A stretch of DNA of 15,894 nt from Candidatus Iainarchaeum sp. (GTDB taxonomy: Archaea; Iainarchaeota; Iainarchaeia; Iainarchaeales; 0-14-0-20-34-12): contig JAUSKK010000009.1 in assembly GCA_030649345.1 (NCBI GenBank), positions 1-15,894 on the forward strand, read 5' to 3'. The notes under the pieces are model-generated. The model worked only from the letters and a program-made list of their open reading frames with translations. It searched no databases and was not told where the DNA came from. Position numbers and translations under genes: made by a program. Shown piece after piece: positions 1,671 to 14,954 of the stretch; position 1 is the stretch's first letter, and each line of letters opens with the position of its first letter.

Positions 1671-1820
1671 TTATTTTGGCAATCGCTTTCTTACTGTAAC
1701 TGTTGGTTTGGTTATAGGTCGTTTTCCTAAAGCAGCTGATCTCCAAGCAGATACAGCCATTCCTAAAATACTTCCAGTTCTTCTAGGTTGCGGTTTTCGA
1801 ACAGGTCTAGGTCCAGGCAT
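1671..1820 (-). CDS. candidate 49-aa basic small protein (MPGPRPVRKPQPRRTGSILGMAVSAWRSAALGKRPITKPTVTVRKRLPK)
   Basis: Hand translation of the minus strand gives ATG at 1820-1818 and TAA at 1673-1671, below the ORF-track length cutoff. It fills an otherwise 217-nt gap in a very compact region. Its ATG is about 27 nt from the centre of a palindromic TATA-like box (1842-1852), which is also about 26 nt from the divergent Trm112 ATG. No homolog recognised. Confidence 0.35.
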   Translation of the reverse strand: MPGPRPVRKPQPRRTGSILGMAVSAWRSAALGKRPITKPTVTVRKRLPK

Positions 1821-1841
1821 ATATTATACTATTGCTGAACC

Positions 1842-1852
1842 TTATTTAAATA
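1842..1852. promoter_or_regulatory. palindromic TATA-like box (TTATTTAAATA), possibly serving two divergent leaderless genes
   Basis: Near-palindromic A/T box. It is centred about 26 nt upstream of ATG 1873 (+) and about 27 nt upstream of ATG 1820 (-). This matches the usual archaeal TATA-to-start spacing if both mRNAs are leaderless. Confidence 0.4.
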
Positions 1853-1872
1853 CTTATTTTCTTAATCTTTGC

Positions 1873-2040
1873 ATGCCTTTATCCCAAGAATTGCTGCAAA
1901 TCTTAGTTTGCCCTCAATGCAAAGGCGAATTAGCTTATTTAGTTGAAAAGTCCAAATTAGCCTGTAAATCTTGCAAACTGGCTTTCCTGGTTGAAAACAA
2001 TATTCCTATTTTGTTAATCGATCAAGCAGTTTCAATTTAA
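1873..2040 (+). CDS. Trm112-like / UPF0434 small zinc-ribbon protein
   Basis: 55 aa: MPLSQELLQILVCPQCKGELAYLVEKSKLACKSCKLAFLVENNIPILLIDQAVSI. It has CPxC...CxxC cysteine pairs and the typical (D/N)xIPILL ending of Trm112/DUF343 proteins. The 69-aa N-terminal extension in track ORF 1666..2040 has no support. The stop overlaps the convergent gatB stop (TTAA at 2037-2040). Confidence 0.75.
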   Translation: MPLSQELLQILVCPQCKGELAYLVEKSKLACKSCKLAFLVENNIPILLIDQAVSI

Positions 2041-3350
2041 TTTTTTATTTTGGCCAATAGTATTTCTTGAATTATTTCAACTTTTTGATTTTTGTTTTCT
2101 TGTTTTATTTTTCCAATCAAAAAATTCAATGAATTCTGTTTTCCGTTTCTATAATCTAGTACGGCTTGTTCATTTTTTTCCAATATTTGTTTTATGGCAG
2201 TCTCTAAATTGTTTTCTGAAATTTTCATTTCTGTTTTTCCGTCCAATTTGTTGCGCAGCCATTCAACTGCCTGCATTTCTTCAATTTGTTTTTCTTTCAT
2301 TTTTTGAATAATTTCAATCAAAAATTCGTTCAAAAATTCAATGGACTGTGAAATATTTCTGTATTCCAATTCATGTTTTACGTGTTTTTGAAAAAACAAT
2401 CCAGCCGTTAAAAAATCACAGCGTGAACTTATTTTTGAAAATGATTTTACTAAATTTTTTTTCGAGCAAATGGTTTGAGCTGTACTAAATGCCAGCCCTT
2501 TTTGAATTAATTGATTTCGATAATTTAGCGGATGAATGGGTGCTTGTTGAATTATGGCTTCAATCATTTTTGAATCAATGGCAAAACTTGCAATATCTGG
2601 GTCTGGAAGATGTCTGTAATCTGCGGTATCTTCTTTGTCTCTGGATTCAAACAAACATCTTGCCTTCCGGTCTAAATGAAGTGTTTTTCGCACAATTTTT
2701 TTCCCTTGAGCCATTAACATTTTTTGTCTTTGTTCTTCTAATTCTATGGCGATTTCTATATCGTGAATGGAATTTAAATTTTTAATTTCTCCGCGTTCTG
2801 CTCCAATAGAAACATTTACGTCTATTTTGAATTCTGCTCCAGTTCTGCAAAATTCCAAATAATCCAACAAGTATTTGAATTCTTTCAAAAATTCAATGGT
2901 TTCTGGCCCTGAATATAATTCTGGTTCAGTTACCAATTCCAGCAATGGAACTCCGGAACGATTAAAATTCACAGTTCCGTGTTCAAAATCATAGTCTCCA
3001 GCATCTTCTTCTGCATGAATCTCTCGAATATTTACTCCGCGAAATTTTCCTTGAATGATTAAAGGTTCTGTGGTTCGCTGGAAATTGTTGGGTAAATCCG
3101 GATAAAAATAATGTTTGCGCAAAATTTTTATTTGTTTTTTTTCGACAATGGTTCCATGCAAAAAATGGCTTAATTCAATGGCTTGTTCAATAACTGTTTG
3201 ATTCAACTTCAAGGGTTTAGCTCCAGGTTGCCCTGTGCAAATTTCACAAATATTTTCATTTCCTTTTTTTCCAACATAGTCTGCAGAACAAGCGCAAAAT
3301 AATTTGCTTTCTGTTCTAGGGTAAATATGGATTTCCAAGCCAATCTTCAT
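2037..3350 (-). CDS. gatB: aspartyl/glutamyl-tRNA(Asn/Gln) amidotransferase subunit B
   Basis: MKIGLEIHIY...KLFCACS...CEICTGQPGAKP, RKHYFYPDLP, IHAEEDAGD, NRSGVPLLELVTEP, EIKNLNS and DYRHLPDPD are all GatB/GatE-family signatures. Its position directly after gatC-gatA argues for GatB. I chose ATG 3350-3348 because it forms an ATGA overlap with the gatA stop (TGA 3349-3347). The track ORF extends to 3386. Confidence 0.9.
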   Translation of the reverse strand: MKIGLEIHIYPRTESKLFCACSADYVGKKGNENICEICTGQPGAKPLKLNQTVIEQAIELSHFLHGTIVEKKQIKILRKHYFYPDLPNNFQRTTEPLIIQGKFRGVNIREIHAEEDAGDYDFEHGTVNFNRSGVPLLELVTEPELYSGPETIEFLKEFKYLLDYLEFCRTGAEFKIDVNVSIGAERGEIKNLNSIHDIEIAIELEEQRQKMLMAQGKKIVRKTLHLDRKARCLFESRDKEDTADYRHLPDPDIASFAIDSKMIEAIIQQAPIHPLNYRNQLIQKGLAFSTAQTICSKKNLVKSFSKISSRCDFLTAGLFFQKHVKHELEYRNISQSIEFLNEFLIEIIQKMKEKQIEEMQAVEWLRNKLDGKTEMKISENNLETAIKQILEKNEQAVLDYRNGKQNSLNFLIGKIKQENKNQKVEIIQEILLAKIKN

Positions 3351-4687
3351 GGAGCATTCACCCAATTTTCCCATTTTTGTAAGCAACCCAAAACTGTTTT
3401 ATCTTCAAATTGATTTCCCATAACTTGCAATCCAATGCCTTCGCCTAAAGAAATACTTCCAGCTGGGCTTCCAATTAAATTGGCTTGAACAGTTAACAAA
3501 TCTGCAGAATACATTTGAATAGGGTCTGCAATTTTTTCACCCAAGCCAAACGGCGGGACTGGTGCCACACTGGAAATTAGGATAGGTGTTTTTTGAAATA
3601 ATTGAGTGTATTCTTTTTGCAATCTTGCTCTTGCCGTTAATGCCTTTTTGTAAAATTTTTGGCTTTCTTCTTTTTGAGTTAAATAAGTTCCCAATAAAAT
3701 TCTTCGCTTGACTTCTTTTCCTAAAACACTTCGATTGACTTTCACTGCTTCTATAATATCGCTTCCTGAAAATTGTTTTCCATACTTGAATCCATCAAAT
3801 TTTTGCATACTGCTGGAAAATTCAGCATACATGCAGGCATAATATGCTGGAACAGCTATTTTTTGCAAAGGCATTGAGTGCTCAATTACTTCCAGTCCTT
3901 TTCGTTCCAGTGTTTGAATTGTTTTTTTTATTTTTTGTTCAACTTTTGTATCTAAATTTTCCATTTGCTCTCGAATGATTCCAATTTGTGTAATTTCTTT
4001 TTTTTCTTTTAGTTTTTCTTTTTGTTCACAAAATAAATTCAGTAATGTTTCCGAGTATTGAACTGTTTTTTCCATCCAGGCAACAGTATCCAAACTCATG
4101 GCCAAGTCACTTAAACCATGCCGTGAAATAATGTCATGCGTTGGCTTAAAGGATTGAATATTGCAAAAAGTTGCCGGCAAACGAATACTGCCTCCAGTAT
4201 CCGATCCAAGGCCTATGTCGCATAATTCTGCTGAAACCGAGCATGCTGTTCCAGAACTGCTTCCGCCGCATGTTTTTCCTTTAAATTTTGGATTTTGGCT
4301 AGTTTGAAATGCACTGTTTTCTCCGCTGGAGCCGCAGGCAAATTCATCGCAATTGGTTTTTCCCAAAATAATTCCGTCTTCTTTTAGAATCTGTTCAACT
4401 ACTTTTGCAGAGTAGGGCGCGATGTATCCATCCAATGATTTGGAACTGCATTGAAACGGCAGTCCTTGTACTGCAAAAACATCTTTAATGGAAAAACATA
4501 ATCCAAATAACTTTCCATGTTTTTCTTTAGGTTTTTTTTCTAATTCATTGATTCGTTCCAACAGTTTGCCTAAAGATTCAACAGAATTAAATGCCTGCAA
4601 TTCAGATTTGCGTGCAATTTGTTCCAAGTAATTGAGTGTTCGTTCCCGTAATTCAGTTAAGGCCTTGCCTGTTTTTTTCGGCATCAT
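3347..4687 (-). CDS. gatA: aspartyl/glutamyl-tRNA(Asn/Gln) amidotransferase subunit A (amidase signature family)
   Basis: Amidase signature region GGSSSGTACSVSAELCDIGLGSDTGGSIRLPA. Length is 446 aa and the gene sits between gatC and gatB. Confidence 0.92.
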   Translation of the reverse strand: MMPKKTGKALTELRERTLNYLEQIARKSELQAFNSVESLGKLLERINELEKKPKEKHGKLFGLCFSIKDVFAVQGLPFQCSSKSLDGYIAPYSAKVVEQILKEDGIILGKTNCDEFACGSSGENSAFQTSQNPKFKGKTCGGSSSGTACSVSAELCDIGLGSDTGGSIRLPATFCNIQSFKPTHDIISRHGLSDLAMSLDTVAWMEKTVQYSETLLNLFCEQKEKLKEKKEITQIGIIREQMENLDTKVEQKIKKTIQTLERKGLEVIEHSMPLQKIAVPAYYACMYAEFSSSMQKFDGFKYGKQFSGSDIIEAVKVNRSVLGKEVKRRILLGTYLTQKEESQKFYKKALTARARLQKEYTQLFQKTPILISSVAPVPPFGLGEKIADPIQMYSADLLTVQANLIGSPAGSISLGEGIGLQVMGNQFEDKTVLGCLQKWENWVNAP

Positions 4688-4706
4688 AGTTTGCTCCTAT
4701 TTTTAT

Positions 4707-5027
4707 TCAAACTCTTCTGGAATTTGAATTCTGTTCCCAACTCGAGTTTTTATAAAATGTTTTGGGAACAACGGCAAGGCTGTTTTTTTGTTCTGGAAAC
4801 ATTTTTACAATATTTTTTGAATTTAAATGAATATGAATACAATCTTTTCGAAATTCATTTTCTTGTTTTTCGTTTGTTTGAAATCTTTCTTCTTGAATGT
4901 CTATTGTGTTTAAAGGTTCTAAAAATTTTAGAATTTCTGCCAATTCTTTTTCAAATTCTTGAAATTCTTTTTCAGTTAATTCCAGTCTGGCTAAGTGTGC
5001 TAGTTTTTCCAATTCTTCTTTTTTCAT
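4707..5027 (-). CDS. gatC: aspartyl/glutamyl-tRNA(Asn/Gln) amidotransferase subunit C
   Basis: MKKEELEKLAHLARLELTEKEFQEFEKELAEILKFLEPLNTIDI... matches the GatC pattern (hAxLARLxLxxxE). It lies 19 nt upstream of gatA. Start is ATG 5027, with ATG 5033 (MLMKK) as an alternative. The track extension to 5126 would run through the hairpin element and into the lrp 3' end, so I reject it. Confidence 0.8.
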   Translation of the reverse strand: MKKEELEKLAHLARLELTEKEFQEFEKELAEILKFLEPLNTIDIQEERFQTNEKQENEFRKDCIHIHLNSKNIVKMFPEQKNSLAVVPKTFYKNSSWEQNSNSRRV

Positions 5028-5035
5028 AAGCATTA

Positions 5036-5097
5036 CAACCCGCGTGCGGGTTGGTAACACGTGGCACTTGCGTTTCACTTCAGTGCCACAGTTTTTT
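5036..5097 (+). repeat. double-hairpin element, copy 1 (unclassified structured RNA/DNA motif plus T-tract)
   Basis: Hairpin 1 is CAACCCG(5036-5042)/CGGGTTG(5047-5053) with loop CGTG. The linker GTAACAC contains CACGTG. Hairpin 2 is GTGGCACT(5061-5068)/AGTGCCAC(5082-5089) with loop TGCGTTTCACTTC, followed by TTTTTT (5092-5097). It is collinear with copy 2 at 10965 and shows compensatory stem substitutions. It fills the whole gap between the lrp stop (5096-5098) and the gatC start. Confidence 0.6.
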
Positions 5098-5533
5098 ATT
5101 CTTTGACTGTGCGGAAAACCAAACAACTTAAGGTTGCTGCAACTCCACGAATTCCTCGAACTCTATCCAATATGGTTTCTCCAATTTTTTTTAAATTTTC
5201 TCCGCGTACTTTGATGATAATATCAAATGTTCCAGTAATAATGTAGACTTCTTCTACGCCGGGAATTTTTGCAATTTGTTTAGCAACCTCATTTTGGTCA
5301 ATGCCTGACTTGTAATCATAGGTAATCAATACCATGGAAGTTGTTCCTAAATTTAATTTTTCATAATCTGGAACAATGGTGTATTTTTTGATGAATCCAT
5401 CGGTTTCCAATTTTTTAATTCTGTCAAAAACAGTGGTTCTCGGCATTCCCAATTCTTTAGCTAACTCTTTTACACTCTTCCTAGAGTTTTCTTTTAAACT
5501 ATCAATAATTAAAGAATCTTTTTTATCCATCAT
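5096..5533 (-). CDS. Lrp/AsnC-family transcriptional regulator
   Basis: N-terminal wHTH (IIDSLKENSRKSVKELAKELGMPRTTVFDRIKKLETDGFIKKYT) plus a C-terminal RAM/AsnC_trans_reg-like domain (VLITYD...VEEVYIITGTFDIIIKV). An A/T box (reverse complement catttataaattaaata) lies about 25-35 nt upstream of the ATG, suggesting a leaderless mRNA. Confidence 0.9.
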   Translation of the reverse strand: MMDKKDSLIIDSLKENSRKSVKELAKELGMPRTTVFDRIKKLETDGFIKKYTIVPDYEKLNLGTTSMVLITYDYKSGIDQNEVAKQIAKIPGVEEVYIITGTFDIIIKVRGENLKKIGETILDRVRGIRGVAATLSCLVFRTVKE

Positions 5534-5661
5534 ATACTTATTATGTCGGTATTTAATTTATAAATGTATCACTATTCCGTCTTTTTGACAATAAAACCGT
5601 CATTAGTTTTAAATATAACCTAGTTTATTGTATTTAGTACGCAGAAAATGGGGCAAAATAC

Positions 5662-5720
5662 GGGTGGGTAGTCGCAACACCGCCTGACCGCGGTGGCAGG
5701 TCGTGATGCTAAAGCATCAC
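5662..5720 (+). other. tRNA-Asn 5'-end duplicate fused to two GC-rich hairpins (unclassified RNA-like element)
   Basis: 5656-5673 (aaatacGGGTGGGTAGTC) repeats 5746-5763 (aaatatGGGTGGGTAGTC), which is the upstream flank plus the first 12 nt of tRNA-Asn, with one mismatch over 18 nt. It continues as CACCGC(5678-5683)/GCGGTG(5690-5695) and GTGATGC(5703-5709)/GCATCAC(5714-5720). No matching 3' acceptor strand exists, so it is not a complete tRNA. Confidence 0.4.
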
Positions 5721-5751
5721 TGTCTAAAGATTAAAGTTAATCCAAAAATAT

Positions 5752-5824
5752 GGGTGGGTAGTCCAATTTGGTAGGATGCAAGGCTGTTGACCTTGGGACA
5801 CTGGTTCGAGTCCAGTCCCACCCG
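5752..5824 (+). tRNA. tRNA-Asn (anticodon GTT), no intron, CCA not encoded
   Basis: Manual cloverleaf: acceptor GGGTGGG/CCCACCC, D arm GTCC-AATTTGGTA-GGAT, anticodon arm CAAGG-CTGTTGA-CCTTG (GTT at positions 34-36), T arm ACTGG-TTCGAGT-CCAGT, discriminator G. Confidence 0.92.
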
Positions 5825-5830
5825 CTATCC

Positions 5831-5890
5831 AAACCCTTCCAGGGTTTCGATGCATCCCGGGTGGAGGATCTTCGTTTCACTTGATCCTCC
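5831..5890 (+). repeat. double-hairpin element, copy 3 (divergent stems, conserved loop)
   Basis: Hairpin 1 is AAACCCT(5831-5837)/AGGGTTT(5841-5847). The 15-nt linker contains ATGCAT and CCCGGG. Hairpin 2 is GGAGGATC(5863-5870)/GATCCTCC(5883-5890) with loop TTCGTTTCACTT. That loop shares the 10-mer CGTTTCACTT with copy 1, although the stem sequence is completely different. It starts 6 nt after tRNA-Asn. Confidence 0.5.
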
Positions 5891-5995
5891 TGAACTTAAT
5901 TGCACTTGATACTGCGTTGGCAAAAAAGAAAGAAACCGTATTTGATCAAAAGAAATCAAATTAATTTGTAATTGTTTTAAGTTGTGTGAAATTTT

Positions 5996-6850
5996 ATGAC
6001 TGATAAAAAAATTGCGTATCTTGCTGCTGTGCTAGTTGGATTATTCGCTGGTTTTATTCCAATTGGATCTAAACTAGTTATAGCAGACGTTTCGCCTTTG
6101 GTTTTTTCGTTTTTTATCCATTTATTTCAATTGCCATTTTTACTCATCGCCATGTTTTTAACTGGAGAAAAATTATTTCTTCCCACCAGTGCACGTTCAA
6201 AATATTTTTTTGCAGGAATTGTTATTTTGGGTTTGGTGGGTATTGCTCTTGTAAACTTTGGCTACTCCGGCGGCTTAGCTTTAGAGGGTGCATTTCTTTC
6301 TCGTTTGGAGCCATTGTTTGCTGGCTTGTTAGGCTTTTTGCTTTTTCGTGAAGGTTTGCATAGAAATCAATGGCTGGGAATGCTTATGGCATTTATTGGT
6401 TTATTTTTGTTTTTTTCTTCTGGTTTAATGTTTTCTGTGTTTTCAATATTTTTCTTGGCAGCTGCTTTAAGTTGGGGCTTGCAAGATGTTCTTGCAAAAG
6501 AAATTATTCATCAAGCAGGTCCTGGTTTGATGAACTTAGGTCGTGTGCTTTTCGGATCTGCAGTTTTAGGTTTTTTTGTTTTTCCAGAAATTTTGCCAGT
6601 GCTTACAGTTCACTGGATAAGTTTTTTGTTAGTTGGTTTTTTGTATTTTGGTACAAATTATTTGGGATTCTATGCTATGAAAGAACTAACTGCCGCAGAG
6701 GCTGTTTCCTTTTATTTAATGGGTCCAGTAATTTCTCTTCTTTTGTCCGCAGTATGGCTTCATGAACCAATCAGTGGTGCTCAGTTGGCTGGTGGTGCAG
6801 TTATTTTGTTAGGACTCGGTCTAGTCTCAGTTTATGCAATTAAAAAATAA
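5996..6850 (+). CDS. EamA/DMT-superfamily transporter (about 10 TM)
   Basis: 284 aa, hydrophobic throughout, with the two-fold repeat architecture and Gly-rich helices typical of EamA-domain proteins. The internal ORF 6370..6765 in another frame is a shadow. Confidence 0.85.
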   Translation: MTDKKIAYLAAVLVGLFAGFIPIGSKLVIADVSPLVFSFFIHLFQLPFLLIAMFLTGEKLFLPTSARSKYFFAGIVILGLVGIALVNFGYSGGLALEGAFLSRLEPLFAGLLGFLLFREGLHRNQWLGMLMAFIGLFLFFSSGLMFSVFSIFFLAAALSWGLQDVLAKEIIHQAGPGLMNLGRVLFGSAVLGFFVFPEILPVLTVHWISFLLVGFLYFGTNYLGFYAMKELTAAEAVSFYLMGPVISLLLSAVWLHEPISGAQLAGGAVILLGLGLVSVYAIKK

Positions 6851-7032
6851 CTAAAGCTATTCAAGATTTTATTCAAAAAAACAATCATCAGATCACTCCC
6901 ATGGCCTTATTGGCATTAAATGCCTTGCTAGAAGCTCTAAAACAGCAAAGAAAACGTTAAGTACCTATTTAAATTTTAAATGTTTTAATCTTTATTATAT
7001 CATAATTCTATGGGTGAATTGATTTTTTTTAG

Positions 7033-7425
7033 GTGGTGATTTTTTTGGCAGAAACAGAAACTCAAGTAAACACAGCAGAAATTCAGGAAGAAGAAGGAAT
7101 TGTAGATGAACGCGAATTGCCGTTTCCGCGTGCAACTATTGTGAATATGATGCGTCAATACATTGACAAAGGAAAACAAATTAAAGGACCAGTCAAAGAT
7201 GAAATGAATATTTGGTTAGGGAAATTGGTTGAAAAATTAGCCAAAAAAATGAATGCACATCCTTATACTTATGTAGATTTAGCCATGTTCAATGAAGCCA
7301 TTAAAACCTATGAACAATTAGAAGAAGTTGAAATGGAACGCGAACGAATTATTAAGTACATGGAAAAAATCAAAGCAGATTTAGACATGCTGGAAAGAGA
7401 AGTAGACAAAAAATTCAAAGTATAA
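7033..7425 (+). CDS. histone-fold protein with acidic N-terminal segment and C-terminal coiled-coil extension
   Basis: The core ELPFPRATIVNMMRQYIDKGKQIKGPVKDEMNIWLGKLVEKLAKKMNAHPYTYVDLAMFNEAIKTY aligns by eye to the helix-loop-helix-loop-helix of HMfB-type archaeal histones (ELPIAPIGRII...). A heptad-like tail follows (EQLEEVEMERERIIKYMEKIKADLDMLEREVDKK). There is no ATG before the fold, so the start is GTG 7033/7036 or TTG 7045. The latter sits 5 nt after AGGTGGTGA (7031-7039). Confidence 0.6.
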   Translation: MVIFLAETETQVNTAEIQEEEGIVDERELPFPRATIVNMMRQYIDKGKQIKGPVKDEMNIWLGKLVEKLAKKMNAHPYTYVDLAMFNEAIKTYEQLEEVEMERERIIKYMEKIKADLDMLEREVDKKFKV

Positions 7426-7428
7426 TTC

Positions 7429-7461
7429 GGAGAATTTTTTCTCCCTATTTTTTATTTTTTT
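7429..7461. terminator. hairpin plus oligo-T tracts between convergent genes
   Basis: GGAGAA(7429-7434)/TTCTCC(7439-7444) with loop TTTT, followed by T6 and T7 runs. It lies between the histone-fold stop (7425) and the stop of the minus-strand 356-aa gene (7469). Confidence 0.45.
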
Positions 7462-7468
7462 ATTTTAA

Positions 7469-8539
7469 TTATTTTTTTCTTCGAATTCTGTAAGCAAATG
7501 TTTTAGGTGCATTGGCTAAAACTCTTAATGTTTCCATTAAGCCGCGTATGCTTAATTCTTTTTCTGTGTCTGCTAACACTTCTGTTGGATGTTGTTCTAA
7601 TTTTTTTATTTCCATTTCTAAAAATCCAATGGCCTTGTTTAAATGTGTTTGAATGACTCTGGGATTTCGCTGATTTTGTGCAGCTCGCATAGCTAACTCG
7701 ACACACATAGCTGCTGCAGTTGGATAATTTTTTCTTGTTCTAGCTTTTCCCAATTCTTTTACTAAAACATAGGTTGGTTCTTTGGGAACTGCAATTAATT
7801 TTAAAATATGCTGCATGGCTGAAGCAATTCTTCCTTGTTGAACTGCACTGTGTTCTCTTAGTGTACGCAAAACTTTTACTCCACCTCTAGTTTTTAACAT
7901 TTTTTGCGCAATTTCTTTTCGTCTTTCTTTTCCTAATTTTTTTCGTCTTTTTTTTGCAATACTGGCTCTTTTTTTTGCACCCAATTTTGCTTGTCGGTCT
8001 TTGGCTAATTTTTGCATTAATTCTCTGTTTCCTTTTTCTTTAATCCATGTACTAAATCGTGCACTGGCGGGTTTCATATGCTTTATTCGTTCTGCCACTG
8101 CAACTTTTGACCAGTGTGTCCGTTGTGCTTGCCGCAAAGTTTCCCGGTCTCTTGTCATGCTGGCTCTGCGTTCTTCTGGAGTTGTTTGAGCCATCCAAGT
8201 TTGTTTAGCTCTTCTAGCACTTTCTCTTCTTTTTTCTACAGGAATGTGTTCAACGCTTTCTTTTCTCATTCTGGTTCTTTCTTCTGAAGAAAATCTACTC
8301 CAATAAGCTGTTTTTACTTTTTGTCTACGTTCATAGTCTGCCAGTTGTTTTCGTACTTGTTCTTCTGTTTCCATTCCTGCAAATCGATCAAATAACTTTC
8401 GAATCATGTGCGGCGGTGTTTGCGGCTCAACCTTTCTAGCTTTTTGCACTGCATATGTTTTTGAAACTCCTGTGTGTGCATCAAATGCTAAATTATGAAC
8501 TGCTCGCAAAGGCAAAGGCTTGTAGGGTTTTTTAGGCAT
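7469..8539 (-). CDS. very basic Arg/Lys-rich protein with internal W-x(5-7)-E-E-R repeats, unknown function (nucleic-acid binding suspected)
   Basis: 356-aa ORF. Four repeat units contain W80, W115, W143 and W165 (AYWSRFSSEERTRMRK / QTWMAQTTPEERRASMTR / THWSKVAVAERIKHMK / STWIKEKGNRELMQK). A poly-basic stretch follows (AKKRASIAKKRRKKLGKERRK), then a helical C-terminal domain. GAGG lies about 10 nt upstream of the ATG. The gene starts 28 nt downstream of the kinase gene on the same strand. Confidence 0.7.
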   Translation of the reverse strand: MPKKPYKPLPLRAVHNLAFDAHTGVSKTYAVQKARKVEPQTPPHMIRKLFDRFAGMETEEQVRKQLADYERRQKVKTAYWSRFSSEERTRMRKESVEHIPVEKRRESARRAKQTWMAQTTPEERRASMTRDRETLRQAQRTHWSKVAVAERIKHMKPASARFSTWIKEKGNRELMQKLAKDRQAKLGAKKRASIAKKRRKKLGKERRKEIAQKMLKTRGGVKVLRTLREHSAVQQGRIASAMQHILKLIAVPKEPTYVLVKELGKARTRKNYPTAAAMCVELAMRAAQNQRNPRVIQTHLNKAIGFLEMEIKKLEQHPTEVLADTEKELSIRGLMETLRVLANAPKTFAYRIRRKK

Positions 8540-9272: not shown

Positions 9273-9311
9273 GTATTACGATTTAATGCATAATTTTGGA
9301 GGATGAAACAA

Positions 9312-10964
9312 ATGGCAGAAGCAGGACCACAGCAAAGAGAAATGGTATTTTTACCAGAAGGAGCAAAACGAACACGAGGACGAAATGCTCAACAAATTAA
9401 TATTTTAGTTGCACGCGCAGTAGCTGAAGCAGTACGCTCAACATTGGGCCCTAAAGGAATGGACAAAATGATTGTCGATGAACTCGGAGATATTATCATC
9501 AGCAATGACGGAGCAACCATTTTAGACAATATTAGTATTGATCACCCCATTGGAAAAATGATGGTGGAAGTTGCTAAAACTCAAGACAGCGAAGTCGGAG
9601 ACGGTACAACTACTGTAGTTGTTTTAGCCGGTGGATTATTAGAAAAAGCCGAAAAATTATTGGAAGACGAAATTCATCCCAGTGTAATCATTAAAGGATA
9701 CAGAATGGCTTCTCATAAAGCAGTTGAAGTCTTGAATGAAATTGCAGATCCTATTGACATTGAAAACAAAACCATTCTCAGAGAAATTGCTTTAACCACT
9801 ATGACTGGAAAAAGTGCAGAATCTGAAAAAAGTTTATCCGATATTGTAGTAGATGCTGTTTTGCAAGTTGCTGAAAAACAAGGCAAAGAAACAATTGTGG
9901 ACAAAGATCAAATTAAAATCGAAAAAAAAGACGGCGGACATGTATCTGAATCTGAATTGATTCGCGGAATTGTTGTAGATAAAGAAATTGTTCATTCCGG
10001 AATGCCTAAATTGGTTAACAATGCACGGATTGCTTTAATCGATGTTGCTTTAGAAGTTAAAGAAACAGAGACTGACGCAGAAATTTCTATTTCTGATCCA
10101 GAACAATTGCAGGCATTTATTGACAAAGAAGAAAGCATGCTGAAAGAAATGGTGGATAGAATTGCGAAAACCAAAGCCAATGTAGTCATGTGCCAAAAAG
10201 GAATAGATGACATTGCCCAGCATTTTTTAGCCAAAGCAGGAATTGCTGCATGCCGTAGAGTCAAGAAATCGGATATGGAAAAATTATCCAAAGCTACTGG
10301 TGGAAAATTAATTTCTCGGTTAGCAGACATTTCTGAAGAAGACTTAGGTCATGCAAAAATTGTTCAAGAAAAGAAAATTGGCGGAGAGGCCATGACTTTT
10401 ATTGAAGGCTGTAAGAATCCAAAGTCTGTAACTATTTTAGTTCGCGGCGGAACAAGCCATGTAGTAGCTGAAGTTGAACGCGCTGTAGTCGACGCCGTTG
10501 GAAGTGTCAGTACTGCATTAAAAGATGGAAAAATTGTCTCCGGCGGAGGAAGTACGGAAATGCAATTATCCATGCGTTTACGAGACTATGCTAAAACAGT
10601 TGGCGGCCGAGAACAATTAGCCATTGAATGTTTTGCAGAAGCTTTAGAAATTATTCCCAAAGCTTTAGCTGAAACAGCCGGAATGGATGCCATTGACACT
10701 TTAGTTGATTTAAGATCCAAACATTCTGTTAAGAAAGGCAAAAATATTGGAGTCAATGTATTCAAAGCCAAACTTGTAGATATGTTGGCTGAAAAAGTCA
10801 TTGAACCCATGCGAGTCAAAAGACAAGCTATTGTTTCCGCAACCGAAGTAGCTGAAATGATTCTCAGAATTGACGACATTATCGCAGGCTCCAGCAAAAA
10901 CAGAGGAATGCCACCCGGTGGAATGGGTGGAATGCCTGGCGGAATGGGCGACATGGATATGTAA
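9312..10964 (+). CDS. ths: thermosome subunit (group II chaperonin, Cpn60/TCP-1 family)
   Basis: [26 protein letters not shown] and [11 protein letters not shown](A)E motifs, [12 protein letters not shown], and a C-terminal GGM-type tail ([19 protein letters not shown]). I prefer ATG 9312 because GGAGG (9298-9302) lies 9 nt upstream. The in-frame ATG 9303 directly abuts that GGAGG and is the alternative. Confidence 0.95.
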
Positions 10965-11037
10965 CAACCGGGGTGCCGGTTGGTAGCACGTGGTACTTTC
11001 GCTAACGCTACAGTACCACTGTCTTTTCTTTTTTTTC
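10965..11037 (+). repeat. double-hairpin element, copy 2, directly after the thermosome stop, followed by a T-rich tract
   Basis: Hairpin 1 is CAACCGG(10965-10971)/CCGGTTG(10976-10982) with loop GGTG. The linker GTAGCAC contains CACGTG. Hairpin 2 is GTGGTACT(10990-10997)/AGTACCAC(11012-11019) with loop TTCGCTAACGCTAC. A T-rich tract follows (tgtcttttcttttttttc). It starts 1 nt after TAA 10962-10964. Confidence 0.6.
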
Positions 11038-11087
11038 TCTTTTCTTTTTTCCGATTTATTTTTATTTAACTTATTCTATTTTTTTAT

Positions 11088-11594
11088 ATGCAGGCACACA
11101 GAAAAATTTCTCGTACACCTAGATTGAATATTGGCCAGTATTGGAAAAATTACAAGCGCGCTGCTCGTGATCCTCGCATTTCAACTGTTCAAGCTCAGCG
11201 CGGATTGTTTGCGCGTGTCTTTAAACCACGGGTTTCTCCAAGCACTCGATTTATTTTAACCCTTATTGAAAACGAGCTTGCGCAAGGAATGACTTCAGAA
11301 TCTTTTCAGCGAGCGCATGTACATGCTTTGTCTGAATTGGAACTAGTTGGTGTTCCAAAACAAAATTGTCTTCCTGAACTAAAACAAAGGTATGATCAAT
11401 TATACAACGAACTTCAATCTCTGGCAGCTTTATCTATGGACGTTAAATTAAAGCAAGCAGACTTAATGCGCAAAGGAATAGTAACTCCAAGTGAACTTTT
11501 GTTGTACAATAAATTCAGTCATGCATTCCATAATGAAGCGCATCGAAGAATATTGTTTTTATCTGAACTCATTCACTCTGTTCGTTCCAGTTAA
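11088..11594 (+). CDS. Arg-rich helical protein, paralog 1 of a tandem triplet, unknown function
   Basis: 168 aa. It shares with the next two ORFs a basic N-terminus (TPRLNIGQ), a central block (FILTLIENELAQGMTSES) and a C-terminal block (LMRKGIVTPSELLLYNKFSHAFHNE). The box TTTTTATTTAAC (11059-11070) ends 17 nt before the ATG. Confidence 0.7.
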   Translation: MQAHRKISRTPRLNIGQYWKNYKRAARDPRISTVQAQRGLFARVFKPRVSPSTRFILTLIENELAQGMTSESFQRAHVHALSELELVGVPKQNCLPELKQRYDQLYNELQSLAALSMDVKLKQADLMRKGIVTPSELLLYNKFSHAFHNEAHRRILFLSELIHSVRSS

Positions 11595-11643
11595 CTGAAA
11601 AGATACTGTACTGTTTTTATTTTCTTTAATTCTTTAATTTTAT

Positions 11644-12183
11644 ATGTTGTACAAACGTCCTCCGCTCAAAAGACCAAAATATAGGCCAAGATTAAGTATT
11701 CGTAAACCCATGCGGGAATTTACGCATTTGCTGAAAGGAACTCCTAGAGAACAACATGAAAGAGTGCGTACTCGTTTTTTTTCAGAATTTTTTAGATCCC
11801 AAACTTTTGCAGCTGGACGCTTATTATTTAATTTAATGGAGCAAGAAATTGCTAAAGGAATTTCTGAAACTTCTTCGGGGCAAATTCTTGGGCGTGCCAG
11901 AACTATCTTGAAAATTGCACGCACAAAATTAAAAGGAAAAAAAGTTTCCTCTCTTGCTGCTGAAGAAAGCTTGAAAGTAATGGTTCGAGAATTAGACCGT
12001 GATTTTGAACGATTAAGTAGATTCGGTACAAGCATGCGGTTTCGTGAAAGTGACATGTTAACTCAAGGAGTTATTGGAGTTAATGAAATGACTCCCTACA
12101 ATGAATTTATTCATGCATTCAAAGGAGAACTGGGCCTTCGAAGAACTTTGCTGGTGATTCTTAAACGAGAATTAGCTAAATGA
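11644..12183 (+). CDS. Arg-rich helical protein, paralog 2 of a tandem triplet, unknown function
   Basis: 179 aa with RPRLSIRK, LLFNLMEQEIAKGISETS and MLTQGVIGVNEMTPYNEFIHAFKGE blocks collinear with paralogs 1 and 3. The box TTTTTATTTTCT (11614-11625) ends 18 nt before the ATG. The antisense 138-aa ORF 11640..12056 is rejected because the + frame has paralog support. Confidence 0.7.
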   Translation: MLYKRPPLKRPKYRPRLSIRKPMREFTHLLKGTPREQHERVRTRFFSEFFRSQTFAAGRLLFNLMEQEIAKGISETSSGQILGRARTILKIARTKLKGKKVSSLAAEESLKVMVRELDRDFERLSRFGTSMRFRESDMLTQGVIGVNEMTPYNEFIHAFKGELGLRRTLLVILKRELAK

Positions 12184-12225
12184 TATTTTGCATACTTTTT
12201 TATTTTCTAAAATTACTATATCTCT

Positions 12226-12747
12226 ATGAAAAAACCAATTCCATTCAAACCAGTCCGAAAAGTTGGCTTGAATGTTGAACGAACTTGGCAAAAATATTCT
12301 GCCATGCGACGAGTTTATGGTGAAAATACTCGAACATTTCGTCCGCATAGATTGGCTTTGTTTAATAGCTTAGTTCGAAAACAAATTCCTTTAGATCTCA
12401 AAATTTTATTTGACGCAGTCAGTATTGAATTTGAAAAGTCACCGCGTTTAGCTAATCCCAGAGAAGCAGTCAACAGAGTTCAACGTTTTCTGCGAAGCCA
12501 TGGTGCATCGCCTGAAGAAACACCAGTCCGTTTGCGTTCTATGATTAAAGACATGCAAGGACTTTTAGATCGCTTAACTGCATTCGAGACACAGGCAAGA
12601 GTTCAACAAAAACGTTTGATGGCCAAAGGGCGAATTCAATTCACTGATTTTAAAGCCTATTCTGCGTTTGTTGCTGAATTAAAAGACCAAGTAGAAACCC
12701 GAAAACGGTTTATGGACTTATTGGCTCGAGAGTTAGGAACTGATTAG
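12226..12747 (+). CDS. Arg-rich helical protein, paralog 3 of a tandem triplet, unknown function
   Basis: 173 aa with KPVRKVGLNV, ILFDAVSIEFEKSPRLAN and LMAKGRIQFTDFKAYSAFVAELKDQ blocks collinear with paralogs 1 and 2. The box TTTTTATTTTCT (12197-12208) ends 17 nt before the ATG. Confidence 0.7.
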   Translation: MKKPIPFKPVRKVGLNVERTWQKYSAMRRVYGENTRTFRPHRLALFNSLVRKQIPLDLKILFDAVSIEFEKSPRLANPREAVNRVQRFLRSHGASPEETPVRLRSMIKDMQGLLDRLTAFETQARVQQKRLMAKGRIQFTDFKAYSAFVAELKDQVETRKRFMDLLARELGTD

Positions 12748-14096: not shown

Positions 14097-14131
14097 CCCT
14101 CCTTAATTGGAGGGAATTTTTCCTTTTTTTT
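14097..14131 (+). terminator. GC hairpin plus oligo-T terminator
   Basis: CCCTCC(14097-14102)/GGAGGG(14109-14114) with loop TTAATT, followed by aatttttcctttttttt. It starts 11 nt after the stop of the membrane protein gene. Confidence 0.55.
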
Positions 14132-14754: not shown

Positions 14755-14820
14755 GCCTAAGCTTTGATTATTGTGCATAGCATATTCATTTTAATTCTTT
14801 GAATTACTTGTTTTATAGTT

Positions 14821-14894
14821 GGGCCTGTAGCTCAGCCTGGCAGAGCATTGGTCTTATACGCCAGTGGTCAACGGTTCAAATCCGTTCAGGCCCA
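14821..14894 (+). tRNA. tRNA-Ile (anticodon TAT), no intron, CCA not encoded
   Basis: Manual cloverleaf: acceptor GGGCCTG/CAGGCCC, D arm GCTC-AGCCTGGCA-GAGC, anticodon arm TTGGT-CTTATAC-GCCAG (terminal G-U pairs, TAT at positions 34-36), variable TGGTC, T arm AACGG-TTCAAAT-CCGTT, discriminator A. Confidence 0.88.
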
Positions 14895-14954
14895 AACTGC
14901 AACTTTCTTGTAATTCAAAAAGTTTTATTAAGTTAGTTAACTGCATGTGAAACA

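Follow-up and report, generated by a model that had tools for sequence, protein, structure and literature searches.

A diverged double-hairpin repeat in the intergenic spacers of a Diapherotrites contig: a possible archaeal counterpart of bacterial REP elements

Repetitive extragenic palindromic elements (REPs) and bacterial interspersed mosaic elements (BIMEs) are short GC-rich stem-loops located mostly downstream of open reading frames (ORFs), and many of them are transcribed and act as RNA elements (PMC3733652). In the GTAG and CGTC super-families, stems of 5-13 bp carry loops of 2-20 nt; these elements are extragenic and for the most part follow ORFs closely or separate genes of the same direction; they are often paired, show a patchy, lineage-specific distribution and reach tens to hundreds of copies per genome (PMC3733652). 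Small non-coding dispersed repeats able to form hairpins also occur in Archaea, as miniature inverted-repeat transposable elements (MITEs) in Sulfolobus and as palindromic repetitive elements in Methanocaldococcus jannaschii (Suyama et al. 2005, as cited in PMC2229807). As far as the literature that we found shows, there are hardly any descriptions of small structured intergenic repeats from DPANN archaea, whose genomes are tiny and in which the ending and processing of transcripts are almost uncharted. Here we describe a double-hairpin element found in four homologous copies (c1 to c4), all on the + strand and all intergenic, in one whole 15.9-kb contig (15,894 bp, hereafter the window) of a metagenome-assembled genome (MAG) of Candidatus Diapherotrites (DPANN). 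We propose, as a reading with about an even chance of being correct, that it represents a lineage-specific family of REP/MITE-like structured intergenic repeats, which are co-transcribed with their neighbours and have been retained or tolerated in the role of terminator or stability hairpins.

The 16 kb of the window is the genome sequence that was examined for the family, and the copy count (n=4) holds for it. The original prediction, made from the sequence alone, had reported c1 in the gap between the lrp and gatC genes and c2 further downstream. Both are present, and the fold proposed for them was reproduced with RNA as well as DNA parameters: a 7-bp hairpin with a loop of 4 nt, a 7-nt linker and an 8-bp hairpin, with z-scores of -2.6 to -4.4. 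The consensus of these two copies reads CAACCSG/CSGGTTG for hairpin 1, GTARCAC for the linker and GTGGYACT/AGTRCCAC for hairpin 2, whose loop measures 13-14 nt. They are 84-88% identical. As had been claimed, they align without gaps outside the second loop, the sole gap being one position in that loop. A 16-nt linker core, GGTTGGTARCACGTGG, is found in the window only at these two sites, against 0.06 expected. The linker was also said to contain CACGTG; this hexamer is present, but it extends from the linker into the first 3 nt of hairpin 2. Four differences are found over the 30 stem positions, and they form two compensating pairs, C5041:G5048 to G10970:C10977 and C5065:G5085 to T10994:A11015, exactly those named in the original prediction. 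As it had also stated, no pair is broken and no stem difference between c1 and c2 is one-sided. By our own arithmetic, the probability of obtaining two compensated pairs from four random substitutions on 30 stem positions is about 4e-4 ((105/27405) x (1/9)).

Two copies proved too few. A covariance model (R1) built from c1 and c2 identified c3, and c4 was found by reading the region; both lie within the window, on either side of the tRNA-Asn gene, and one of them is probably the "third copy" to which the original prediction alluded while naming a lack of further copies as a point against itself. Copy c3 keeps an AACA prefix, the 7-nt linker and the GTG...CAC ends of hairpin 2, and an 8-mer following hairpin 2, CACTGTCT, is common to c2 and c3. 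Three further compensated pairs are seen in its second hairpin, where the large loop is gone and a loop of 4 nt is found. In c4, the stem of hairpin 2 (GGAGGATC/GATCCTCC) differs from that of c1 at 5 of 8 pairs, while a 10-mer of loop 2, CGTTTCACTT, is identical in c1 and c4 and has no other occurrence in the window. The architecture common to the copies consists of a hairpin 1 with a perfect 6-7 bp stem and an AACC/GGTT core, a linker of 7-15 nt and a hairpin 2 with a perfect 7-8 bp stem. The hairpin scan returned eight perfect hairpins across the four copies, 17-30 nt long, all intergenic and stable both as RNA and as DNA. The copies have a G+C content of 53-63%, compared to 35% for the window. 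The family conserves architecture rather than sequence.

Table 1. Positions of the double-hairpin copies, of the features next to them and of the hairpins that follow the thermosome gene in relatives. Positions are those of the window, except in the last five lines, which refer to the loci named. Loops are in lower case where letters are given.
Feature	Position	Strand	Sequence or remark
c1	5034-5097	+	folds, hairpin scan, independent assembly
c1 hairpin 1	5036-5053	+	CAACCCG cgtg CGGGTTG
c1 linker	5054-5060	+	GTAACAC
c1 hairpin 2	5061-5089	+	GTGGCACT tgcgtttcacttc AGTGCCAC
c1 T6 run	5092-5097	+	overlaps lrp stop codon (5096-5098, minus strand)
c2	10963-11027	+	folds, hairpin scan
c2 hairpin 1	10965-10982	+	CAACCGG ggtg CCGGTTG; linker GTAGCAC
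c2 hairpin 2	10990-11019	+	GTGGTACT ttcgctaacgctac AGTACCAC
c3	5676-5728	+	covariance model R1 (20 bits, E 0.0004-0.0013), folds, hairpin scan
c3 hairpin 1	5678-5695	+	CACCGC ctgacc GCGGTG; 7-nt linker GCAGGTC
c3 hairpin 2	5703-5720	+	GTGATGC taaa GCATCAC; tail TGTCTAAA
c4	5829-5895	+	found by reading the region; folds, hairpin scan, independent assembly
c4 hairpin 1	5831-5847	+	AAACCCT tcc AGGGTTT; 15-nt linker CGATGCATCCCGGGT
c4 hairpin 2	5863-5890	+	GGAGGATC ttcgtttcactt GATCCTCC
gatC, first gene of gatCAB	4707-5033	-	PF02686; ATG at 5033 (alternative start, 5033-5031, 2 nt before c1 hairpin 1) or 5027 (8 nt from it)
lrp/asnC-family regulator	5096-5533	-	PF01037, PF13412; stop codon overlaps the T-run after c1
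19-nt direct repeat, first copy	5655-5673	+	AAAATACGGGTGGGTAGTC; duplicates tRNA-Asn -7 to +12; 2 matches, 0.00 expected
19-nt direct repeat, second copy	5745-5763	+	AAAATATGGGTGGGTAGTC; true tRNA-Asn 5' end
tRNA-Asn (GUU)	5752-5824	+	Rfam; c3 and c4 on either side
Thermosome gene	9303-10964	+	3' untranslated region contains c2
Three tandem paralogous ORFs	11088-12747		168, 179 and 173 aa; between thermosome and AAA_18/DNMK-like kinase
L008, thermosome 3'-end hairpin and T-run	7822-7852
L010, thermosome 3'-end hairpin and T-run	2978-3013
L038, thermosome 3'-end hairpin and T-run	1665-1691
L039, thermosome 3'-end hairpin and T-run	11647-11672
L041, thermosome 3'-end hairpin and T-run	11638-11664

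We then considered the statistics of pairing over an alignment of the four copies anchored by hand. In this alignment 58 of 59 stem cells are Watson-Crick, a percentage that is partly built in, because the hairpins guided the alignment. This fitting does not build in the lack of one-sided changes or of G-U pairs: of the 15 pairs, 11 carry changes in both partners and not one in a single partner, and G-U pairs number zero. The values observed were unmatched in 500 shuffles for four of five measures, and the count of further pair types was matched by one shuffle in 500. When the partners were slid, pairing fell to 25-49%. The window contains five adjacent pairs of perfect hairpins, four of which are the elements described here and the fifth of which involves a tRNA, whereas 100 dinucleotide shuffles gave a mean of 0.17 and a maximum of 1, placing the window about 30-fold above expectation. 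The claim that the hairpins are a selected secondary structure is borne out to the extent that something sensitive to pairing maintains them.

The lack of any G-U pair in 59 stem cells speaks for a constraint that is the same on both strands, as for palindromes acting at the DNA level or for hairpins used in transcripts of either orientation. A structure serving in RNA only is doubtful. A role in both transcript orientations requires stems that pair on both strands and fits the zero G-U count; a DNA-level origin or constraint fits it equally well.

The sequences of c1, c3 and c4 are not assembly artefacts of the MAG, because an independent assembly of run SRR13727527 yielded two contigs that match the window at 100% identity over 1761-5856 and 5828-7568, a range that covers these three copies. 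The two contigs (the end of L037 and the start of L042) overlap on exactly the first 29 nt of c4, 5828-5856, corresponding to hairpin 1 and the start of the linker. Such an overlap is what a k-mer repeated elsewhere in the sample would cause, and gives a hint of multi-copy or mobile behaviour. The other contig ends of that run (1761, 7568, 14887 and 15810) fall in unique sequence and not at elements. The element is also open in several frames, giving rise to a spurious N-terminally extended gatC ORF of 139 aa (4707-5126, minus strand) and to a spurious + strand ORF of 61 aa (5061-5246).

According to gene calls and Pfam, the window carries in order gatB, gatA, gatC and an Lrp/AsnC regulator (all on the minus strand), tRNA-Asn (+), an EamA transporter, a small protein and a 356-aa protein of unknown function, a RIO-type kinase, the thermosome, three tandem ORFs of unknown function and an AAA_18/DNMK-like kinase. 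The 62-nt spacer that separates the lrp stop from the gatC start is taken up entirely by c1; were c1 removed, these two minus-strand genes would lie about 10 nt from each other. The original description of c1 as an intercistronic or 5' untranslated region (UTR) structure on the minus-strand lrp-gatC mRNA remains a good one. Copy c2 lies immediately 3' of the thermosome stop codon (TAA, 10962-10964), with a long T-rich tract (11020-11050) after it. Copy c3 is located 24 nt upstream of tRNA-Asn and c4 starts 4-6 nt past its 3' end; neither carries a T-run. As a rule, the element has no promoter or terminator of its own, with c1 and c2 abutting coding sequence and c3 and c4 devoid of T-runs.

To place c2 in context, the window was compared with the thermosome loci of seven related genomes, totalling 91 kb, whose thermosomes are 68-75% identical. 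No comparable intergenic double hairpin was found in these 91 kb by the hairpin scan, nor by the covariance models R1 and R2, and the element would accordingly appear, from this comparison of sequences, to be a lineage-specific gain. In all seven relatives the thermosome stop runs straight into a T-rich tract, and in five of them an unrelated hairpin of 9-13 bp stands directly before this tract, often overlapping the stop codon (Table 1). The T-tract after c2 is therefore the ancestral thermosome terminator, present in relatives without the element, and c2 sits exactly between stop and tract, in the slot that relatives fill with a different hairpin. This slot is the best evidence for a function, c2 being a candidate for the structured part of a hairpin-plus-U terminator, or for a 3'-end protector, on a highly expressed mRNA. 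T-runs as such were rejected as a part of the element: runs of five or more occur once per 100 nt on the + strand of the window, and c3 and c4 lack one. A single hairpin followed by a T-run is also seen after two other + strand genes of the window (7429-7444 and 14097-14114).

In model archaea, U-tracts terminate transcription with no need for a hairpin (PMC8716108). Recurrent hairpins at these positions in the present clade are worth noting, since U-tracts alone are held to be sufficient in those organisms. The lineage may use bacterial-style hairpin-plus-U ends, unlike model archaea. As intrinsic terminators are described there, c2, and c1 when read on the + strand, resemble them in having a 7-8 bp GC-rich stem followed by a T-run (PMC8716108). 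Copy c2 has all the features of a hairpin-plus-U terminator. For c1, which has the U-run, no + strand gene lies upstream; c4, located after tRNA-Asn, has no U-run, nor has c3; moreover, bacterial terminators are mutually non-homologous, in contrast to the copies described here.

We extended the search to public collections by scanning for the exact pattern CAACCN{6,12}GGTTGGTANCACGTGG in 185,579 species genomes and in JGI metagenomes, and for GGTTGGTANCACGTGG in IMG/VR. Only chance matches were obtained, in unrelated and mostly GC-rich contigs without a second hairpin. Because the pattern required the linker of c1 and c2, which is absent from c3 and c4, these scans show only the c1/c2 sub-type to be missing from the collections. 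BLAST against plasmid and phage collections gave no match. The lrp-gatC junction itself has no orthologue for comparison, as no GatA homologue above 44% identity was found.

If the REP/MITE-like reading holds, a palindromic repeat of about 45-65 nt would have spread within this lineage into the intergenic gaps of an AT-rich genome. Having no promoter of its own, the element would be transcribed within whichever neighbouring transcript runs through it: c2 would be part of the thermosome 3' UTR, c3 and c4 part of the leader and trailer of tRNA-Asn, and c1 an intercistronic lrp-gatC structure transcribed in the opposite sense, since no + strand gene lies upstream of it. The stems, being all Watson-Crick, fold equally well in either orientation, and the hairpins would give their host RNAs stable terminal or internal structures. 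Upstream of its U-tract, c2 could serve as a bacterial-style hairpin-plus-U terminator or 3'-end protector, and c1, between two cistrons, as an exonuclease barrier or as a boundary for processing or stability. By analogy, absence from relatives, minimal spacers and GC-richness in an AT-rich genome would be typical of REP-like repeats (PMC3733652). Like REPs, the present copies would plausibly be transcribed and act in termination or mRNA stability through RNA hairpins. Elements of this kind are known; the novelty, judged from the copies at hand, would lie in an archaeal (DPANN) host and in a unit of two different hairpins arranged head to tail and kept by structure. A module that spread into the few free gaps, that stands where relatives have unrelated hairpin-plus-T sites and that kept nothing but its pairing, all of it Watson-Crick, would amount to a clear counterpart, in Archaea, of the REP elements of bacteria, and would hint at hairpin-assisted termination or 3'-end protection in this lineage, whereas model archaea use U-tracts alone. 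Repeats of this kind also break assemblies and mislead gene callers.

Several observations weigh against this reading. The defining trait of REPs and MITEs is a high copy number, tens to hundreds per genome for REPs; the 15.9-kb contig, the part of the genome that was read, gives four copies. No transposase, of the Y1/RAYT type or other, is found in the window. Terminal inverted repeats are absent, a flanking direct repeat exists at only one of the four copies, and divergence among the copies is far greater than is usual for recently spread repeats, and much greater than among REPs. A structure that survives extensive change in its sequence is classically the mark of a functional RNA, and a purely structural role leaves unexplained why c1 and c4 have kept the loop-2 10-mer intact when 5 of their 8 stem pairs are different. 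All four copies share one orientation, for which the chance is 1 in 8. Finally, c1 is not a hairpin-plus-U terminator on the minus-strand mRNA, since no U-tract follows it there.

We next compared the element with known classes of RNA and of mobile DNA. At gathering thresholds, Rfam 15 recognized only two tRNAs over the whole window; a permissive search over the copies (E up to 10) gave best scores of 7-17 bits with E of 1.6-9, and no family covers any copy. The original prediction had recognized no known class, and the C/D and H/ACA features, like Rfam, gave no match. For C/D small RNAs (sRNAs), no boxes are common to the copies; GUGAUGC is present in c3, but CUGA lies upstream of it. For H/ACA sRNAs, no pocket with a 3' ACA is common to the copies, and ACA occurs only in c1, within a stem. 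Layouts of tRNA halves and of group II intron domains D5/D6 were rejected on reading the sequence. The 11 nt GTAACACGTGG (5055-5065, the linker and start of hairpin 2 of c1) are presumably identical to a highly conserved 16S rRNA segment, ..AGUAACACGUGG..; the c2 counterpart is GTAGCACGTGG, Rfam gave no match to small-subunit rRNA there, and the likeness is probably a coincidence.

All copies are short GC-rich extragenic stem-loops, as REPs are, but no unpaired GTAG or CGTC tag stands directly 5' of any stem: the 4 nt after hairpin 1 are GTAA (c1), GTAG (c2), GCAG (c3) and CGAT (c4), and those before hairpin 2 are ACAC, GCAC, GGTC and GGGT in the same order. REP dimers, moreover, are mostly head-head or tail-tail, in contrast to the two differing hairpins arranged head to tail here, and none of the ORFs of unknown function scanned in the window, which lack Pfam and PHROG matches, resembles a Y1 transposase (RAYT). 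MITEs carry terminal inverted repeats, target-site duplications and have a parent insertion sequence (IS). Here, ACAACC at the 5' end is not complementary to CCACWG at the 3' end and the arms pair locally, and a candidate target-site duplication is seen only at c3, with none at c2 or c4 and only low-complexity T-runs at c1. The M. jannaschii elements differ in being longer and inside genes (cited in PMC2229807). The GC clusters of yeast mitochondria, short GC-rich palindromic units in the intergenic DNA of a very AT-rich genome, offer a further likeness, but they are mobile units of an unrelated organelle with different sequence classes, and homology is not expected (PMC4478555).

Integron attC sites share with the element a structure kept while sequence varies, a single orientation and a position at the 3' ends of gene-sized units. 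An attC site, however, folds as a single long, imperfect hairpin that carries R''/L''/L'/R' boxes (RYYYAAC...GTTRRRY) as well as extrahelical bases and lies next to intI. The present element consists of two independent, self-contained perfect hairpins, the GTTGGTA that follows hairpin 1 fits GTTRRRY at 5 of 7 positions, and no integrase gene is found in the window. By the defining features of these classes the element would seem to stand outside REPs, MITEs, attC sites and the known sRNAs, and to behave as a small structured intergenic repeat.

The copies could instead form a family of small non-coding RNA genes, each producing its own two-hairpin + strand RNA of about 55 nt with the conserved loop or linker as the working part. 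We consider this unlikely, although it would account for a structure kept through 11 double-sided pair changes, for the common + strand location of all four copies, for the T-runs after c1 and c2 and for the loop 10-mer that c1 and c4 kept while their stems diverged, and although c3 lies downstream of a duplicated promoter-proximal segment of the tRNA that could drive its transcription. Neither end of such a gene is convincing. Copies c1 and c2 start 1-2 nt past coding sequence, and the region 25-30 nt upstream of them shows no promoter-like A/T box; termination by a T-run is contradicted by c3 and c4, which have none, by the frequency of T-runs on this strand and by the ancestral nature of the tract after c2. 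The independent + strand small RNA ending at T6, which the original prediction had offered as one option, is therefore not supported. Zero G-U pairs, the missing large loop of c3, the lack of Rfam matches and of C/D or H/ACA boxes, and the absence of copies from the relatives' 91 kb also speak against RNA genes. Still less credible is a regulatory role confined to the Asn-tRNA module, in which oppositely transcribed copies (c1 with c4 or c2) would pair and couple expression. The adjacency of tRNA-Asn, an AsnC-family regulator and gatCAB with copies at each junction would suit it, as would the exact loop 10-mer of c1 and c4, which gives opposite-sense RNAs complementary loops where the stems differ, and the co-folding of c1(-) with c2(+) at -78 kcal/mol against -56 kcal/mol for the two folded separately. 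But complementarity between oppositely transcribed copies is automatic for any dispersed repeat, the gain for c1 and c4 is only about 1 kcal/mol over separate folds, c3 has no loop, the thermosome is functionally unconnected to the module, and comparative support is lacking because there are no orthologous loci. It is likewise very improbable that the repeat works as a trans-antisense network in which c1, on the minus-strand lrp-gatCAB mRNA, pairs with c4 through loops of 10-12 nt identical in sequence and with c2 over about 60 nt. Were it true, such pairing would couple the supply of tRNA-Asn, and possibly the chaperonin mRNA, to the amidotransferase that makes Asn-tRNA(Asn), and it would explain why the loop 10-mer was kept while 5 of 8 stem pairs changed.

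A DNA-level alternative, which we also regard as improbable, sees the copies as structure-specific sites of recombination or integration, or as left-over ends of a mobile element, that are recognized as folded single-stranded DNA, much as attC sites or IS200/IS605 ends are, and mark acquired segments. Perfect, strand-symmetric Watson-Crick stems of variable sequence in one orientation are what this would predict, and several positions are suggestive: c2 stands at the left edge of a 1.8-kb segment, made up of c2 and three orphan paralogues, which the relative loci L008, L009, L011, L039 and L040 lack between thermosome and kinase; lrp and tRNA-Asn are framed by c1, c3 and c4 as cassettes are by their boundaries; c3 stands between the two copies of a 19-nt direct repeat that overlaps the tRNA 5' end, an att-like arrangement; and the gatCAB module may be acquired, its nearest GatA being only 44% identical. 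Yet the window contains no integrase, transposase or HUH protein (the H-V-H motif of one orphan is not conserved in its paralogues), and the copies are two separate hairpins, not one long imperfect hairpin with R''/R' boxes. The right edge of the 1.8-kb segment and the gaps between its paralogues carry no element, the RIO-thermosome synteny on the left of c2 is ancestral, and a flanking repeat occurs only at c3. The least probable explanation is that the copies are unrelated terminator hairpins, alike by convergence or chance. In its favour are single hairpins with T-runs after other genes of the window and the unrelated hairpins that follow the thermosome genes of relatives; identity between copies nevertheless largely refutes it, c1 and c2 being 84-88% identical over the whole element, c3 and c4 sharing specific strings with them, the order of the two hairpins and the stem lengths being the same in every copy, and paired hairpins being about 30 times commoner than in shuffles.

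The 19-nt direct repeat, AAAATAYGGGTGGGTAGTC, deserves a separate description. Between its two copies lie c3 and an A/T-rich tail, together 71 nt. The repeat resembles a target duplication or an att-type repeat and gives a hint of mobility, but c3 is the sole such case among the four copies. An A/T-rich box lies about 27 nt upstream of both repeat copies, and the first copy may still be transcribed.

The three tandem ORFs downstream of c2 have basic N-termini and are 17-22% identical to the first of them; the thermosome and the AAA_18/DNMK-like kinase that flank them are adjacent in relatives. Only self matches were obtained among 5.8 billion proteins, and no Pfam or PHROG match. An AlphaFold model was confident (pLDDT 84.6) and all-helical, with no significant neighbour in the PDB (best MukF, E 0.19, TM 0.40). 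A transposase was rejected on the lack of a family match, on the H-V-H of one ORF that the others do not conserve and on the all-helical model. These ORFs appear to be a lineage-specific orphan family.

In the left part of the window, gatB, gatA, gatC, the AsnC/Lrp-family regulator and tRNA-Asn lie side by side (2037-5824) and constitute a complete Asn-tRNA(Asn)-forming module. The nearest GatA homologues come from Aenigmarchaeota rather than from Diapherotrites and, at 44% identity, suggest that the gatCAB module may have been acquired. The 356-aa protein is encoded on the minus strand (7469-8539), is very rich in Lys and Arg without a Pfam or PHROG match, and adjoins a 130-aa ORF of unknown function on one side and the RIO-type kinase on the other. 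In most archaea, AUA codons are read by a modified CAU tRNA. The window carries a tRNA-Ile with anticodon UAU (14820-14895), a type that is, to our knowledge, known from only a few lineages, such as Nanoarchaeum.

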